Positions 10,670 to 41,733 of a DNA stretch of 44,857 nucleotides are shown piece by piece (position 1 is the stretch's first letter; the number at the start of each line of letters is the position of its first letter). The DNA lies in the sequence record OR861626.1, one strand, 5' to 3'. Made by a program: the position numbers and the translations under genes. The notes below the pieces were generated by a model. The model ran no database searches, had not been told where the DNA came from, and worked only from the letters and a program-made list of their open reading frames with translations. Source of the stretch: Escherichia phage phiA2-1.

Positions 10670-11140
10670 ATGAACTGGAATTATGTTTTTGAGTATAGAG
10701 AGGGTGTTCTTTATTGGAAGGTAAAACCAGCCATACAATACAATATTGGCGATGTTGCTGGTTTCTTTTGTGAAAAGAGAGGTTACATAATCGTTCAATA
10801 CAGGCGTGTAAAGGTAATGGCCCATAGGGTTGTATGGGAAATGTTTAATGGAAGAATAGCTGATGACATGGAAATTGATCACATTGACCACTCTAGAAAA
10901 AACAACAACATATCAAACCTAAGACTGGTAACGAAGAGTGATAACATGAAAAACAAAAGCATGTACTCATCAAATAAAACTGGCGTTGTCGGGGTTAGTT
11001 ACTGCAAAACAAAGAAAAAATTTATATCAAAGATAGGTAAGAGAATTCTATTAACAACAAGCAATTTTGAAGAGGCTGTAAAAGCGAGAAAAATCGCAGA
11101 GATAGCCCTTAATTATCACAAAAATCACGGGAGTAAATAA
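10670..11140 (+). CDS. HNH homing endonuclease (HNH plus AP2-like DNA-binding region)
   Basis: Motifs HRVVWE, IDHIDH, NLRLV...N..N; AT-rich gene inserted between tape measure and tail protein M. Confidence 0.7.
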   Translation: MNWNYVFEYREGVLYWKVKPAIQYNIGDVAGFFCEKRGYIIVQYRRVKVMAHRVVWEMFNGRIADDMEIDHIDHSRKNNNISNLRLVTKSDNMKNKSMYSSNKTGVVGVSYCKTKKKFISKIGKRILLTTSNFEEAVKARKIAEIALNYHKNHGSK

Positions 11141-14274: not shown

Positions 14275-14763
14275 ATGCAAAAATTCGAGAATTACCTTTA
14301 CGAGATTGATGGAAAGCTATACTGGAAGGAGGCGAGAAACAACTCGGCCAAAATAGAGTCAGAGGCTGGATTTATTCATCATTCTGGCTATAGGTATGTT
14401 AAATTGAATGACAAACAGACTTCATCTCACAGGATTCTTTGGTACTTAAGAAATGGATTCAAGATGCCACCTAAAGGCATGGAGATTGACCATATAAATG
14501 GAAACAGGCTTGACAACTCAGCTAGTAACTTACGGATTGTATCTTCATCGGTAAACTCAAAAAACAGGTCAAAAAGGTCAGATAACTCAAGCGGCGTTGC
14601 GGGAGTTGGATTTCATAAGTTAACTGGAACGTGGTGGGCTACGATATCAATAAACAAAAAGAGAAAGCACTTGGGGCTATTCGTTGATTGGTTTGAAGCA
14701 GTGTGCGCCAGAAAGAGCGCTGAGAACTTAAATGGTGAGTACACCTATAGACATGGTAAGTAA
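14275..14763 (+). CDS. HNH homing endonuclease (HNH plus AP2-like region)
   Basis: Motifs HRILWY, IDHINGN, NLRIV...N..N; inserted between I and J; inverted repeat AGTCACC/GGTGACT (14240..14270) just upstream of start. Confidence 0.7.
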   Translation: MQKFENYLYEIDGKLYWKEARNNSAKIESEAGFIHHSGYRYVKLNDKQTSSHRILWYLRNGFKMPPKGMEIDHINGNRLDNSASNLRIVSSSVNSKNRSKRSDNSSGVAGVGFHKLTGTWWATISINKKRKHLGLFVDWFEAVCARKSAENLNGEYTYRHGK

Positions 14764-25012: not shown

Positions 25013-25036
25013 ATAAAAAACCTCCCGAAGGAGGTT
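25013..25036 (-). terminator. Rho-independent terminator (minus strand) after the primase-like gene
   Basis: ACCTCC-CGAA-GGAGGT hairpin with A-run on plus strand (U-run on minus). Confidence 0.45.
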
Positions 25037-25958
25037 AGTTTATTAAGTCGTTGGCTTTGTACACTTTCTTGCGTATGCCTGTTTTAAATGACTTACCGTC
25101 ATTGGGAATCACCACATCAACATTGCGATCGTCAGCAACAGCAAGGATATCGATATCATAATCATGGCAAGCAATTCTGAACTTCCTTGACTTGTCGCGG
25201 TGTATAACCATCTCCATATTGTAACAGGAGAAAGCAACAAACACCTCGCGACCCCCAGTAGCAAGGTGAACACGTACGCCATCAATATAATTGTCAACAA
25301 CATAAGTATAACTATTGTCCTGCCTAGAACCAATGACAGCAACAGAATCACGAGTATAATCACCAGCAAGGAACTTAACATTTGAATCCTCATCAATAAA
25401 CATTACGTTACAGAACTCATCACCAAGCCCATCCTCATAAACCATGGAGCAAGGCACGGCATGAATCATTGAACCATCTTTAGCTATACCAACATCAAAA
25501 CCAGATTCAGAGTATATACCCTCATATGTCGTGAGTGGACTTGAGTCAACTCGCTGAGTTCTCCCCATGACCTCCAAAACTTTTTCATGGTCTACTTGAG
25601 CGCCCATCTTATAACGATGAGTTCTGGATGCTTGCTTGTTTGCTTTAACTATAACCTCAATTGGTGTTAAGTTCAGCCAGTCACCAAGCAAATTTACTGA
25701 ATCGGCGAAGGACGATCCAGTGCACTTCATGACCCATCCTATACCGGAGTCACTTCCGCATTTCGAACAAACTGCCGCGCCATTTCCTTTTTCACTGCCT
25801 ATTTCGTCGGTAAATCTGAATCTGTCAGTGCCAAAGCAGTATGGGCATGGTCCGTGCTTCTTACTTAGGTGTCTATCATTCCAACCAAGTTCCTTTGCAT
25901 AAAATGATTTCCACAATCCGGCCATCTTAGGTATAACTTCATTCTTATCGTAATTCAT
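25035..25958 (-). CDS. DNA primase-like protein (zinc-ribbon plus TOPRIM-like region)
   Basis: CPYC...CSKCG zinc-binding motif; acidic AVADDRNVD segment; located in replication block. Confidence 0.45.
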   Translation of the reverse strand: MNYDKNEVIPKMAGLWKSFYAKELGWNDRHLSKKHGPCPYCFGTDRFRFTDEIGSEKGNGAAVCSKCGSDSGIGWVMKCTGSSFADSVNLLGDWLNLTPIEVIVKANKQASRTHRYKMGAQVDHEKVLEVMGRTQRVDSSPLTTYEGIYSESGFDVGIAKDGSMIHAVPCSMVYEDGLGDEFCNVMFIDEDSNVKFLAGDYTRDSVAVIGSRQDNSYTYVVDNYIDGVRVHLATGGREVFVAFSCYNMEMVIHRDKSRKFRIACHDYDIDILAVADDRNVDVVIPNDGKSFKTGIRKKVYKANDLIN

Positions 25959-26434
25959 TTGCTTAACCCGTGATTTTCGTGAAAGTTGTATTTTCTCTCT
26001 GCTTCAATTCTTACTTTATACGCCTGCTCTGGAGTATCGAAGTTCCCAAGGTGTAGCTGCTTGCCGTCAACCTTGATGTGAGCCTTAAATTTTCCGTGAT
26101 TTAGCTTTACCACTCCACAATAACCAGTTGTTGATAAAACGCTAAGATTGCAATTTCTTGAGTTACCTTGATTTGTTGTTACTCTTAGGTTTTCTATTCT
26201 GTTATCTAATTTGTTATGGTTTATATGATCAATGTAGTCGCCATTTTGAAGTTCTCCATTAAACATCTCCCACACAACTCTATGTACATAAGTCCTAAGG
26301 CCATTAACAGACACTTTGTAATAGCCAGATGTAGATAGTGAGTTGCACTCATCGCCAACCTTAACACGTCTTGCAGTGCTAATCTTCCAATGCAATTTGC
26401 CATCTACATAGTAAAAATAATCATGCCAGTTCAT
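25955..26434 (-). CDS. HNH homing endonuclease (HNH plus AP2-like region)
   Basis: Motifs HRVVWEMFNG, IDHINHN, NLRVT; third paralog of the same family. Confidence 0.7.
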   Translation of the reverse strand: MNWHDYFYYVDGKLHWKISTARRVKVGDECNSLSTSGYYKVSVNGLRTYVHRVVWEMFNGELQNGDYIDHINHNKLDNRIENLRVTTNQGNSRNCNLSVLSTTGYCGVVKLNHGKFKAHIKVDGKQLHLGNFDTPEQAYKVRIEAERKYNFHENHGLSK

Positions 26435-34226: not shown

Positions 34227-35810
34227 TCACCCCAACAGTCGTGGATTAATGTAAATCTTATCGCCAATCAGGCACGTATAGTTTTTCTCATCAAGCATCG
34301 GAACCAAGTGGTCTTTTATGCGAGTCATGACTCCAGCCTGAGCTTCGAAAGGCTTAACCTTGCGCGCTGCTTCATATAATGAGCGAATACCAACAACGCC
34401 CTTCCCATTCTTGCCCTGCTTAATCAGGATATCAACCAGCTTGTTCATCTCCGCATTGTCACCAGCATGACCAGCAGCACTAGCAGATGACAAATACGTC
34501 TTGCTTAGTTCGTGGAAAATCATAACCGCTTCCTGCATTGTCTCAAGTTCAATCTCTCTGGACTTCTGAGGACTCGACCCGGCTGGCGCGAACCAGTTGC
34601 GAATAACATGCAGAACAGAAGCGATACGAATTGCTTGCTTATCAAACTTACCTAGCGCACCACGTAACATTGTGTGGGAATACTTACCGCCATCACCAAG
34701 ATGCGGCTCCATCTCCTGACGAGCGCGGTTGAGGTAACGCATGGATGACGCACTTACAGTCAGTTTCACTTCAACTTCATTCATAATCTCATGAACGAGC
34801 CGGAAGTAATCAGCCTTCAACCCACCATCAATAGCCTCATAGGTTGAATCTCCATTCTCATCAACAAACACACGGTCGCCAAGGAATGACTTTTCACGCA
34901 CCAGAAGAAAACGTTCAGATACACCAATACCACGCGCACCAGCATTCATAATAGCATTGATTGTTTCATCCTGAGCAATTACAGAAATACATCCCATAGC
35001 CACAAAACTCATGTTGTTTTCTGCGTTAGCGCGCGCAATAGATACGTTACCAGCATCCCACGCCTTAAGCACTAGCTCGCTGTTCGTTTTCTTTGAGCCA
35101 TCTCCGTATGTCATGCCAAGCAGTGAGTTTACGCTTGTTGCCTCATCCGAGATTACAGCAAAGTTTCCCTGTCGGTTGTTTATTCGCGCAAGACCTTCCG
35201 GCGTAGTATCGGAGACCGGGAATACTATATCGCATAGCTTCTCGAGCTTTTCCTCTAAATCCTCCTTCTCTTCAAATAGTGATGCCATCTCAGAAGGTGA
35301 CTTCTCCTGCTTCATCTCTTTTGATAGAGCGGATAGCTTAGCCATAATCTTTTTGCGGTCACGCTTGCGCACTTCATTCAACCGCTCAGTCTCAGCGATC
35401 ATTGGCGCAATAGATAGTGAGTTGATGGCAGATTTACCAGTTGAGGGAGGCTGGCTTGTTACAACGTACAAAGATGTTGGCTGCTGAGTTCCATGATATT
35501 CAACCGTAAAGCGCCCAAGCATTGCAGCAGACACGCAACCCAGAAAGTGCATGTAAGCTGAAGACTCTGGAAACTGAACTGAACGAGCAATATTGGCAGA
35601 TAGCTTACCAACGATATCAATGTCATTACCTAATGATATGACAGGATACTTGTCATTACCTGCATCAATCTCGACAGGTGTTTTCCAGAATGATTGTGAT
35701 TGTCGATAACCATTTGCATTAATGGCCACGCGCAGGGGTGGGAGGTTGTCATTGGCGGCAATTGCCATAACCTGTTCAACAGATAGTTTATCTTCGTTGA
35801 AATCAAACAT
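34227..35810 (-). CDS. P-loop NTPase, putative replicative helicase
   Basis: 527 aa; Walker A-like SQPPSTGKSA; N- and C-termini repeated in the truncated paralog at 38698. Confidence 0.45.
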   Translation of the reverse strand: MFDFNEDKLSVEQVMAIAANDNLPPLRVAINANGYRQSQSFWKTPVEIDAGNDKYPVISLGNDIDIVGKLSANIARSVQFPESSAYMHFLGCVSAAMLGRFTVEYHGTQQPTSLYVVTSQPPSTGKSAINSLSIAPMIAETERLNEVRKRDRKKIMAKLSALSKEMKQEKSPSEMASLFEEKEDLEEKLEKLCDIVFPVSDTTPEGLARINNRQGNFAVISDEATSVNSLLGMTYGDGSKKTNSELVLKAWDAGNVSIARANAENNMSFVAMGCISVIAQDETINAIMNAGARGIGVSERFLLVREKSFLGDRVFVDENGDSTYEAIDGGLKADYFRLVHEIMNEVEVKLTVSASSMRYLNRARQEMEPHLGDGGKYSHTMLRGALGKFDKQAIRIASVLHVIRNWFAPAGSSPQKSREIELETMQEAVMIFHELSKTYLSSASAAGHAGDNAEMNKLVDILIKQGKNGKGVVGIRSLYEAARKVKPFEAQAGVMTRIKDHLVPMLDEKNYTCLIGDKIYINPRLLG

Positions 35811-37449: not shown

Positions 37450-37521
37450 TCTTATGTACTTCGTTTCGATGAGATGATTATGGTCTCCTTGCCAATGAAT
37501 GTCTTTAGCAAAAAGTGCTAT
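37450..37521 (-). promoter_or_regulatory. Promoter-like cassette (minus orientation)
   Basis: Minus strand AATAGCACTTTTTGCTAAAG, ~24 nt, CATAAT, CATCGAAACGAAG leader. Confidence 0.45.
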
Positions 37522-38149
37522 TCGTTGGATTTATTGATTGTTGAAGCTACTGCAATGATTCACATCATTATTGCACGTATAGCAATATTGCATTTAATGC
37601 AATGATGTTTTTGATTGTTGCAGAATTTGCAATGATTGATGTGGGATTGAATGAATAGAGGATGGACTACCATACAAGTTGATTTTGATTCTGGCTGAGC
37701 CACTTTTCTGTATACGCGTAACGCCTGTATACTCACTGTAGTCACAAAAGTAAGTGACCACTAACATACGTTTTTTACGCAGCATATACACTTGACATAC
37801 ACTATAAGTATATAATATATATATACTTCTTCTTTATTATTATTATTATTATTATATGTATACCGTGTATACCGCTCATTGATGGAATAGTTGATATGTT
37901 CCTCTGTTATATTCTGACACACGTCAGAATTGGATGACACTTGTCAGAATAAAAAGGCGCATATATAGGAAATCAGCTCAAAAAACCGTATACAGAGGAT
38001 ACTGCAAGGTTACAACCAGTGCTGGCGCGGCTTTGAGTGCCGAAGGGCGTAACTATGATGAAATATACTAAAATATACATTGACAGACACGTAAATCACT
38101 GGCACTATAGCAATCACTGAAACGCAGTACACAACAACGAGGTATTGAG
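37522..38149. promoter_or_regulatory. Large divergent control region with direct repeats, inverted repeats and a (TTA)7 tract
   Basis: TGCAATGAT x3 (about 37550, 37597, 37627); TGTATAC x4; GTCACAAAAGTAAGTGAC; TTGACA and TATAAT; (TTA)7 at about 37834..37856; GTCAGAAT x2. Confidence 0.45.
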
Positions 38150-38698
38150 ATGCAGAAAGTAACGCTTGGTGAAGTTATTCGTGAGATGGTACGAAAGGCG
38201 ATGGAATCGGAAAGTGGTGAGTTTAAGGTTCCAGTCAGCCAGATATTCAAAATGATTCGCGGAAGGTCGTACCCGGAAATGGAGTATGACACTGAGACGG
38301 ATGAGATATTGAATTTGGCAGACCGGTCATTACCTGAGCTTAAGAACTCATACATCTACAACACCGTGTCACGAATGACAGACTTACGAGACGCAAACAA
38401 GAGGGCGCGATATAAATTTATCTGGATTGATGACGAAGGAGAGCAGACAAACGCAAGGCAATTTGATGGTGATGGTGCTGATAAGTACTTGGTTATATAC
38501 ATTGAGAACGGTGCGCACTGGACTGGCAATCGGGAGAAGAAGAAACAAGAAGCTCAGAAAGAGGCGACCACCATTGAAAGGTTCAAGGCCAGAATCCTGA
38601 AACTCATGCCATCAGTGACTGAATTTGAAGGCGATGAGATTTCCGGTGCTATCAAGGCAATCAAAATGTACCAGGAAATGATTAAGGAGACAAAATAA
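38150..38698 (+). CDS. Hypothetical protein (first gene after control region)
   Basis: 182-aa ORF. Confidence 0.4.
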   Translation: MQKVTLGEVIREMVRKAMESESGEFKVPVSQIFKMIRGRSYPEMEYDTETDEILNLADRSLPELKNSYIYNTVSRMTDLRDANKRARYKFIWIDDEGEQTNARQFDGDGADKYLVIYIENGAHWTGNREKKKQEAQKEATTIERFKARILKLMPSVTEFEGDEISGAIKAIKMYQEMIKETK

Positions 38699-39120
38699 TG
38701 TTTAACTTTAGCGATAACAAGCTCACCACTGAAGAAATTATTAAAATCGCTGAGAGTGATGGGCTTCCAGTTATCAGCGTGGCAATCGAAGCGAATGGAT
38801 ACAAGCACTCTCAATACTTATGGGGTCACATTGGTGTATATGATGTTTTCAAGGGTAGCGACCTTGCGATTATTATTAAGAATCTCGAAAAGTTCAGCAA
38901 AAGCGGAAGCTATGTGGTTACTGTGAAGACACTGCACGAAAGCGTATTCGCCATGCGAGAAATCGGGCCACATGAAAGGCTTCATGATGAACTTATTCCG
39001 CAACTTGAGGTGATGAACATTGCTTTCCTTATCGGCAATAATATTTACATTAATCCTGCTCTTGCAGATTCAAGCTGGAATCCTAATTTTAAAGCCCGAG
39101 AAGATGAGCACCCTAGTTGA
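38698..39120 (+). CDS. Truncated paralog of the 34227..35810 helicase (N- and C-terminal segments only, no ATPase core)
   Basis: MFNFSDNKLTTEEIIKIAESDGLP...AIEANGYKHSQ aligns with MFDFNEDKLSVEQVMAIAANDNLP...AINANGYRQSQ; C-terminal LIGNNIYINPAL aligns with LIGDKIYINPRL. Confidence 0.45.
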   Translation: MFNFSDNKLTTEEIIKIAESDGLPVISVAIEANGYKHSQYLWGHIGVYDVFKGSDLAIIIKNLEKFSKSGSYVVTVKTLHESVFAMREIGPHERLHDELIPQLEVMNIAFLIGNNIYINPALADSSWNPNFKAREDEHPS

Positions 39121-39205
39121 CTACCATACCACCTACGGCACAATGAGGGAGAGGTTGAGGCTGCAATAGAGTTCTATTGGAAAGCTAAATTACTCCTGAA
39201 CGGAA

Positions 39206-39260
39206 AATGGCACGAATTGTCAAACCTTCCTCAAGGCCATTTGATATAGTGGCCTTATTG
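39206..39260 (+). promoter_or_regulatory. Promoter-like cassette variant
   Basis: AATGGCACGAATTGTCAAAC, 22 nt, TATAGT; inverted repeat AAGGCCA/TGGCCTT spans the -10. Confidence 0.45.
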
Positions 39261-39282: not shown

Positions 39283-39513
39283 ATGGAGAGGAATAAATAT
39301 GAAAGAGAAATTATTGGGCTTAATGGCGAGCGTGCTATTATTGATGTGTATCGCACGCTATCAGCATTCGACGTTACAGACCCAGCGTGCCAACATGCTA
39401 TCAAAAAGCTATTGTGTATGGGGCTGCGAGGCCACAAAGACATTATAACAGACCTTGATGACGCAATAGACTCACTAAACAAGATGAAAACTTACCTGGA
39501 GCAAACGAAATGA
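39283..39513 (+). CDS. Hypothetical protein
   Basis: 76-aa ORF. Confidence 0.35.
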   Translation: MERNKYEREIIGLNGERAIIDVYRTLSAFDVTDPACQHAIKKLLCMGLRGHKDIITDLDDAIDSLNKMKTYLEQTK

Positions 39514-41655: not shown

Positions 41656-41733
41656 GCTCTGCTAGCTCAATTGGATAGAAGCAACGACCTTCTAAGTCGT
41701 AGGTTACTGGTTCGAATCCAGTGCGGAGCGCCA
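41656..41733 (+). tRNA. tRNA-Arg (anticodon UCU), CCA encoded
   Basis: Hand-folded cloverleaf: acceptor GCTCTGC/GCGGAGC (one G-U), D-arm with GG, anticodon stem ACGAC/GTCGT with loop CTTCTAA, T-arm ACTGG-TTCGAAT-CCAGT, 3' GCCA. Confidence 0.7.

Follow-up and report, generated by a model that had tools for sequence, protein, structure and literature searches.

A motor-less paralog of the phage helicase encoded beside the control region of Escherichia phage phiA2-1

What might a phage do with a second copy of its helicase gene from which the motor has been lost? The question is raised by the genome of Escherichia phage phiA2-1 (OR861626.1), examined here as a single window of 44,857 nucleotides (nt). 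A plus-strand open reading frame (ORF) at 38698..39120, hereafter the mini, encodes 140 amino acids (aa) followed by a TGA stop, belongs to family PHROG 7327, and resembles at both of its ends the 527-aa helicase encoded on the minus strand at 34227..35810. A sequence-only reading of the window had placed both ORFs at these coordinates and described the mini as a paralog of the helicase of the same phage, deleted internally but with both termini kept, perhaps a regulator or decoy, perhaps a duplication remnant. Both ORFs are present where they were placed, and the paralogy was supported by BLASTP and by AlphaFold2 models of the two proteins.

The parent gene encodes an MCM-like (SF6) helicase of the DUF3987 type, a homolog of T1 gp09, with matches to DUF3987 (PF13148) in Pfam (E = 4e-40) and to phrog_2373, 'DNA helicase', in PHROG. 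DUF3987 proteins are MCM-related helicases of SF6 that carry at their C terminus a winged helix-turn-helix (wHTH) (Kazlauskas et al. 2016, PMC4889955), and a PriCT-DUF3987 protein was established biochemically as a 5'-3' helicase (PMC11724360). Walker A residues G125-K126-S127 and the S221/E223 Walker B region were invariant across 26 homologs. Pairwise alignment yielded significant similarity at both termini of the mini, with residues 1-42 aligned to helicase residues 1-42 (50% identity, E = 2e-13) and residues 35-122 to helicase residues 439-525 (34% identity, E = 3e-11). Furthermore, PHROG profile matches crossed over between the two proteins in both directions. The estimate of ~45 retained N-terminal residues was close to what was found (1-42 aligned), but the C-terminal estimate of ~30 residues was too short, as 75-88 residues comprising the whole winged helix are kept. 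Helicase residues ~49-447, a stretch of some 400 that takes in both Walker motifs (A and B), have no counterpart in the mini, and scans of the mini protein against Pfam and NCBIfam returned no domain, consistent with the proposed absence of the whole ATPase core. Since it has neither Walker motifs nor an ATPase core, the mini is predicted to be incapable of hydrolysing ATP or unwinding DNA.

The helicase and mini represent the sole intragenomic paralogy in the window besides three HNH-like ORFs. The latter (10670-11140, 14275-14763, and 25955-26434; 156-162 aa, 37-38% mutual identity) lie dispersed among structural and replication modules, and comparably placed ORFs in the tail region of phiEB49 are annotated as HNH endonucleases.

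Structure prediction resolved the mini into two modules joined via a 12-residue linker. The N-terminal three-helix module (aa 1-42; 38698..38823, plus strand) is homologous to the N-terminal three-helix module of the helicase (aa 1-42; 35685..35810, minus strand), and the winged-helix domain (aa 55-122; 38860..39063, plus strand) is homologous to aa 451-525 of the helicase, within its C-terminal winged-helix domain (aa 451-527; 34230..34460, minus strand). Both helicase modules were delimited by BLASTP and the AlphaFold2 model, the second in agreement with the wHTH described for DUF3987 helicases (PMC4889955). The mini model, built from a nine-sequence alignment, had a predicted local distance difference test score (pLDDT) of 85 and a predicted TM-score (pTM) of 0.79, and the helicase model had a pLDDT of 88 and a pTM of 0.86; the same secondary-structure elements occurred at the termini of both. 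The N part of the mini contains short helices at residues 11-21, 25-33, and 36-41, all three of which are also found in the helicase model. Its winged helix comprises helices at 55-68, 76-86, and 92-105 and strands at 73-75, 109-112, and 115-118, the H1-S1-H2-H3-S2-S3 topology of the MCM/ORC/Cdc6 type, modeled with high confidence. Structurally it was best matched by initiators, in the winged-helix regions of ORC2, ORC1, and Cdc6, at 7-13% sequence identity. Unlike the C-terminal winged helices of MCM, ORC, and Cdc6, that of the mini is part of a free-standing product, in which it is fused to the 42-aa N module of a helicase. Structural relatives in BFVD were only family members (DTL, TM 0.87; AKS96) and fragments of Drexlerviridae helicases.

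In the helicase model the two modules that the mini keeps flank the ATPase domain. Residues 42-65 of the helicase are modeled at lower confidence and without secondary structure, suggesting that the N module is a tethered appendage, and both retained modules look like peripheral adaptor modules, not ring-forming parts. The strongest conservation in the mini lies in an N-module motif common to minis and helicases (RVAI.ANGY...W), which points to a common partner for the N module of the two proteins. As a separate observation, the mini N module matched a motif, MTAEEALAAAEAEGLPLIRSA..SSGYKHV, that recurs three to five times in two eukaryote-like proteins of low complexity, P0005 (633 aa; E = 1e-15) and P0019 (246 aa). 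The sole Pfam family above its curated cut-off in P0005 was a C-terminal DnaJ domain, and P0019 had none above cut-off.

The best explanation of this architecture, to which we give about an even chance, is that the mini provides stand-alone helicase adaptor modules of duplication origin which act through competition for, mimicry of, or titration of ligands. A free mini would most likely bind the ligands of the helicase end modules, the candidates being DNA for the winged helix, which is normally basic, and a protein partner for the conserved N module. It would thereby compete for, mimic, or titrate the ligands of the helicase recruitment surfaces early in infection. Such a mode of action is the most economical, since a product made of just two peripheral modules can presumably only bind the ligands of those modules. 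A role as regulator or decoy, as the sequence-only reading had suggested, would be plausible on this architecture. Searches of the literature and of libraries returned nothing on ligands of the N-terminal module and winged helix of DUF3987 helicases.

Truncated, catalytically dead relatives of replication or transposition proteins that regulate the full-length enzyme are exemplified by E8^E2 and E2-TR of papillomaviruses and by the inhibitor protein of Tn5, which arise through internal starts or splicing within the gene of the full-length protein. Like them, the mini keeps binding modules without the catalytic part, which would make ligand competition the obvious mode of action. The mini differs from these proteins in being a separate, diverged, and dispensable gene with an internal rather than a terminal deletion, and in that its inhibition is putative.

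The mini fits the profile of phrog_7327 (E = 1.6e-33), its residues 1-138 aligning with profile positions 1-145 of 179; the last 34 positions are unmatched because a premature stop cuts off the tail of the phiA2-1 copy. A word-indexed protein search with the single mini returned itself, as a phiA2-1 hypothetical protein at 100% identity, and one relative, and the family was reached by exhaustive HMMER, profile search, and tblastn. HMMER with the single sequence yielded 19 representatives, the profile search yielded 153 protein clusters at 90% identity (nearly all of the 120 listed being 164-192 aa), and tblastn located full-length homologs in 111 phage records. The gene directly 5' of the mini encodes a 182-aa DUF7174 / phrog_4841 protein (38150..38698, plus strand; Pfam E = 8e-48, PHROG E = 4e-61) and holds this position, with overlapping stop and start, in every mini-bearing locus examined. 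In phiA2-1 the overlap is one base (TAATG), and a Shine-Dalgarno sequence, AAGGAG, lies at 38684..38689 (plus strand), 8 nt 5' of the mini ATG. The Nei-Gojobori ratio of nonsynonymous to synonymous substitution rates (dN/dS) was 0.19-0.26 in five unsaturated mini pairs. Based on these ratios, the mostly full-length clusters, the good Shine-Dalgarno sequence, and the overlapping stop and start, the mini is a real gene of the small phage family PHROG 7327. The alternative of a duplication remnant is wrong for the family, with more than 150 clusters mostly of full length, dN/dS of ~0.2, and a confident, compact predicted fold. ORFs on the opposite strand beneath the mini (38554..38814 and 38818..39003) are mechanical and have no support. 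An Rfam scan returned no RNA family in or near the mini, the sole match being a single tRNA-Arg (anticodon TCT) at 41656-41733, which separates the small accessory genes from the gene for the small terminase subunit. A consensus promoter scan found 8 sites against 11.0 +/- 3.9 in shuffled sequence, i.e. no excess.

Selection on the mini was compared with that on the same two modules inside the helicase, for which dN/dS was 0.008-0.06. Intact minis are thus under purifying selection, far weaker than that on the helicase modules, and evolve 10-20 times faster by this measure. Helicases are 89-99% identical across phages whose minis are just 33-47% identical to that of phiA2-1.

To address the family's origin, the N and winged-helix modules were concatenated into 127 columns, from which a neighbour-joining tree with 200 bootstraps was built, 17 minis being included. 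All 17 minis formed one clade (bootstrap 68%), sister to the helicases of Braunvirinae and Rogunavirinae (bootstrap 70%), and both groups were nested within other Drexlerviridae helicases. Mean identity between minis and Braunvirinae/Rogunavirinae helicases was 60% for the N module and 50% for the winged helix, compared to 54% and 42% among the minis themselves. Minis are therefore closer to the helicase than to one another, which fits star-like divergence from a helicase-like ancestor beside a static helicase. A single origin by duplication of a Braunvirinae/Rogunavirinae MCM-like DUF3987 helicase gene has moderate support from these sequences, with bootstrap values of 68-70% on a short alignment. 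The simplest history would be one duplication followed by an in-frame internal deletion of ~400 codons, removing the whole AAA+ motor, and the gain of a tail. Relative to DUF3987 SF6 helicases of the T1 gp09 type and AgaPH, the mini is alike in its homologous N module and C-terminal winged helix and in a clade that branches inside theirs, but is unlike them in having no AAA+ core, Walker A/B motifs, or Pfam match, and in its extra tail. In full-length minis this tail comprises ~45 residues after the winged helix and has no counterpart in the helicase. The possibility that the tail derives from another part of the genome was considered and rejected, as tblastn matched its own locus only.

The distribution of the mini is narrow. 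The nearest genomes in the phage collection searched are T1-like siphophages of the Drexlerviridae, Braunvirinae, of which TR1 (Christensenvirus) is the closest (87% identity over 72% of a 7.5-kb query), and mini-bearing loci were found in Braunvirinae, Rogunavirinae, and Nouzillyvirus only, with homologs in the same position after DUF7174. Neither DUF7174 nor mini was present at ~45 helicase loci of other Drexlerviridae, T1-like and others, with at least several kb upstream covered; the helicases of mini-less Drexlerviridae are 65-72% identical to that of phiA2-1. A PDB sequence search with DUF7174 returned no match, and no description of the mini protein was found in the literature on DUF7174, on Drexlerviridae helicases and anti-defense, or on Rtp-like phage genomes.

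Within its family the phiA2-1 copy is an outlier. The premature in-frame TGA at 39118..39120 (plus strand) replaces an AGA (Arg) codon of aligned relatives, according to DNA alignment and the codon table, and removes a conserved ~30-aa tail. The remnant of this tail (LPYHLRHNEGEVEAAIEFYWKAKLLLNGK; 39121..39249, plus strand), identified by translation, alignment to full-length relatives, and tblastn, still encodes in frame behind the TGA, outside the 140-aa product, the conserved motif SRLPYHLRY..EFYRKAK.LLNGK or a variant of it. The tail of IME253 aligns across the TGA in tblastn (E = 4e-18). The ancestral TAG stop is now TGG at 39208-39210, and the frame continues for 13 extra codons to a TAG at 39247-39249. 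Furthermore, the phiA2-1 winged helix has a net charge of -2 (isoelectric point, pI, 5.8), compared to +4 for that of the helicase (pI 9.4) and +1 to +7 for those of other minis; a similar charge (-1) occurs solely in an intact 170-aa Logan allele, the closest relative of the phiA2-1 mini. Four positions conserved in helicases and minis (R27, G72, R84, and C114, IME253 numbering) are replaced. Between the phiA2-1 mini and the Logan allele, pN/pS was 0.55, below 1 (Fisher p = 0.014).

These features invite the view that the phiA2-1 ORF is a decaying remnant without function, a pseudogene in the making, which we regard as quite unlikely. The premature TGA together with the mutated ancestral stop, a pN/pS more relaxed than in other pairs, the loss of the four conserved residues and of the positive winged-helix charge, and outright knock-outs in many relatives are all in keeping with decay. 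The same pN/pS nevertheless remains below 1, the 140-aa product folds confidently in AlphaFold2, the acidic winged helix is common to the intact Logan allele and hence older than the stop, and two other lineages independently have tail-less alleles of 139-140 aa that circulate in metagenomes. Given the latter two lineages, the tail-less form seems not to be dead but tolerated or favoured. The phiA2-1 copy would be either a variant that has lost the tail and is confined to protein binding, or one that is heading for decay.

Programmed readthrough at the TGA was rejected, as AGA is found in relatives and, among the three lineages that do have a stop, its codon position and type differ (TGA, TGA, and TAG); the frame remains conserved after the stops because the mutations are recent. 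The TGA is followed by C, and UGA-C is a leaky stop context in E. coli; a minor readthrough product of ~183 aa may be made from the phiA2-1 mini.

The mini locus was read in 23 lineages, in 14 of which the gene is intact. TR3 and Rao1 have a stop at codon 12, with a second in Rao1 at ~codon 44; IME542 has a stop at ~codon 36 plus a frameshift; CEB_EC3a has a stop at ~codon 38; Rtp has 19 codons left, annotated as rtp2; and MFDLDE is all that is left in Sd1. Just before the tail, stops occur in the 12210I group (GGT>TGA; L014:6001-6540) and in DTL (GAG>TAG; L016:6001-6530), 4-5 codons upstream of the phiA2-1 stop (AGA>TGA). Since such lesions are found in at least eight relatives, all of them viable, plaque-forming phages, the mini is not essential and any role is accessory. 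The sequence-only reading had held that absence or disruption of the ORF in close relatives without phenotype would count against it; disruption or deletion was indeed found in the viable close relatives TR3, Rao1, IME542, CEB_EC3a, Rtp, and Sd1, and the phiA2-1 copy is itself truncated, which speaks in part against that reading.

The three stops before the tail fall within 6 codons, are independent, and leave products of 139-140 aa, behind which the tail can still be read in frame. By a simulated scan test, three stops in 6 codons had p ~0.085, which is suggestive only. Tail-less alleles were also found on assembly contigs, 18 of DTL type and 6 of 12210I type, with differing N-terminal backgrounds (P0240 and P0242), and the tail-less forms therefore persist beyond single isolates.

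Sliding identity revealed that the body of the mini has been swapped. Identity to TR1 was 90-100% up to ~38580 and then 41-68% across the mini; identity to a Logan metagenome contig was 76-91% only across 38700-39180; and identity to IME253 was 78-91% only from 39121 onward. The breakpoints around the mini body, at 38580-39180, are sharp and mosaic (loci L001, L005, and L009 compared). Each mini allele brings with it the last ~40 codons of DUF7174. Identity in the tail and the bases that directly follow the stop (TAGCACGAATTG) is 78-90% across alleles whose bodies are 40-60% identical, and this stretch may be a recombination junction. In light of the module swapping, the mini body behaves as an exchangeable cassette in the sequences compared, with DUF7174 and mini alleles not tightly linked.

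Recurrent lesions and allele shuffling are also what might be expected of an arms-race protein, either an anti-defence decoy that soaks up a host sensor or inhibitor of the helicase, or a trigger of abortive infection from which phages would escape by nonsense mutation of the mini. This possibility, which we consider unlikely, accords with the high diversity of alleles beside a nearly invariant helicase, the swapping of alleles as mosaic modules, the persistence of tail-less alleles on 6-18 metagenome contigs, and the independent, recurrent single-base nonsense mutations, three within 6 codons before the tail and others at codons 12, ~36, and ~38. The position of the mini among small accessory genes that cluster next to the packaging (pac) region is also in keeping with it. 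In Rtp (L011:1444-2524) a polynucleotide kinase and a peptide resembling T4 Stp, which is annotated as activating host PrrC, are encoded among the genes just 3' of DUF7174 and what is left of the mini, which suggests that the mini operon gathers host-interaction and counter-defence genes. However, dN/dS was below 1 everywhere measured, the clustering of stops is not significant alone, and rapid turnover is equally typical of any dispensable gene. A scan of NCBIfam, with no anti-defence library included, gave no match, and we know of no defence system that senses DUF3987 helicases. The narrower proposal that the mini is an arms-race mimic of the exposed helicase end modules, whether as a decoy or as a sensed protein, is rather doubtful.

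The setting of the gene bears on two further readings. As had been proposed, the mini comes second among the genes to the right of a control region, a non-coding control/pac region of 700 nt at 37450..38149, which lies between divergent gene blocks and in which sequence reading and a repeat search identified repeats and palindromes. The equivalent of 37450-38149 in TR1 is annotated as the initial packaging (pac) site. The region contains TGCAATGAT three times (37551, 37598, and 37628), a repeat of 30 nt at a spacing of 77 nt, a TTCTGACAC..GTCAGAA palindrome in two copies at 37907-37954, and a run of TTA repeats near 37836-37858; it could hold operators or an origin. On the other side of the mini, the next ORF (39283-39513, 76 aa) matches only the C-terminal ~70 residues of the 235-246-aa phrog_2452 and phrog_17613 ('ATPase'). 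It resembles a second domain-only fragment gene in the operon, with no full-length paralog in the genome.

The proximity of the repeat-rich control region, the ORC2, ORC1, and Cdc6 winged-helix regions as best structural matches, and a winged helix that is basic in most family members would be compatible with a positive replication accessory, an origin-binding or loader-like protein whose winged helix marks the origin and whose N module recruits helicase or primase. We consider this improbable: the gene is dispensable, often broken, and absent from most Drexlerviridae, whose helicases are 65-72% identical to that of phiA2-1, its fast evolution is unexpected for a protein matching a conserved origin and a conserved helicase, and the phiA2-1 winged helix is acidic. 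The primase encoded in the window, at 25035..25958, is of DnaG type. Likewise, the palindromes at 37907-37954 in the adjoining region might be taken to favour a winged-helix transcription regulator of the early operon, in which a helicase domain has been reused as a DNA-binding module. Such a role seems very improbable, as conservation is highest in the N module, which is helicase-specific, the phiA2-1 allele has no basic surface, and no operator was identified.

Competition for, or mimicry of, helicase ligands by stand-alone adaptor modules is itself opposed by several observations. The helicase is nearly invariant and the minis are strongly divergent, which is unexpected for a strict competitor at the same conserved ligand. 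DUF7174 and mini alleles recombine independently, weakening the idea of a tight, allele-specific complex. The phiA2-1 mini may be without the activity of its family, given the loss of the basic winged-helix surface and of the tail and its pN/pS of 0.55. Finally, early expression of the mini is inferred from gene position only.

DUF3987 helicases are widespread in phages and mobile elements, and the mini provides a handle on the ligands of their end modules. Among the many small early phage genes of unassigned function, its ancestry is unusually clear. Natural full-length, tail-less, and null alleles beside a near-invariant helicase constitute a ready allelic series with which regulation of replication could be distinguished from conflict with host defence. 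If arms-race mimicry were true, the recurrent nonsense mutations, allele shuffling, and lineage losses would be footprints of escape and adaptation, not of plain decay. If the mini were mere dispensable baggage, it would still represent a clean case of gene birth by duplication and internal deletion, followed by repeated loss.
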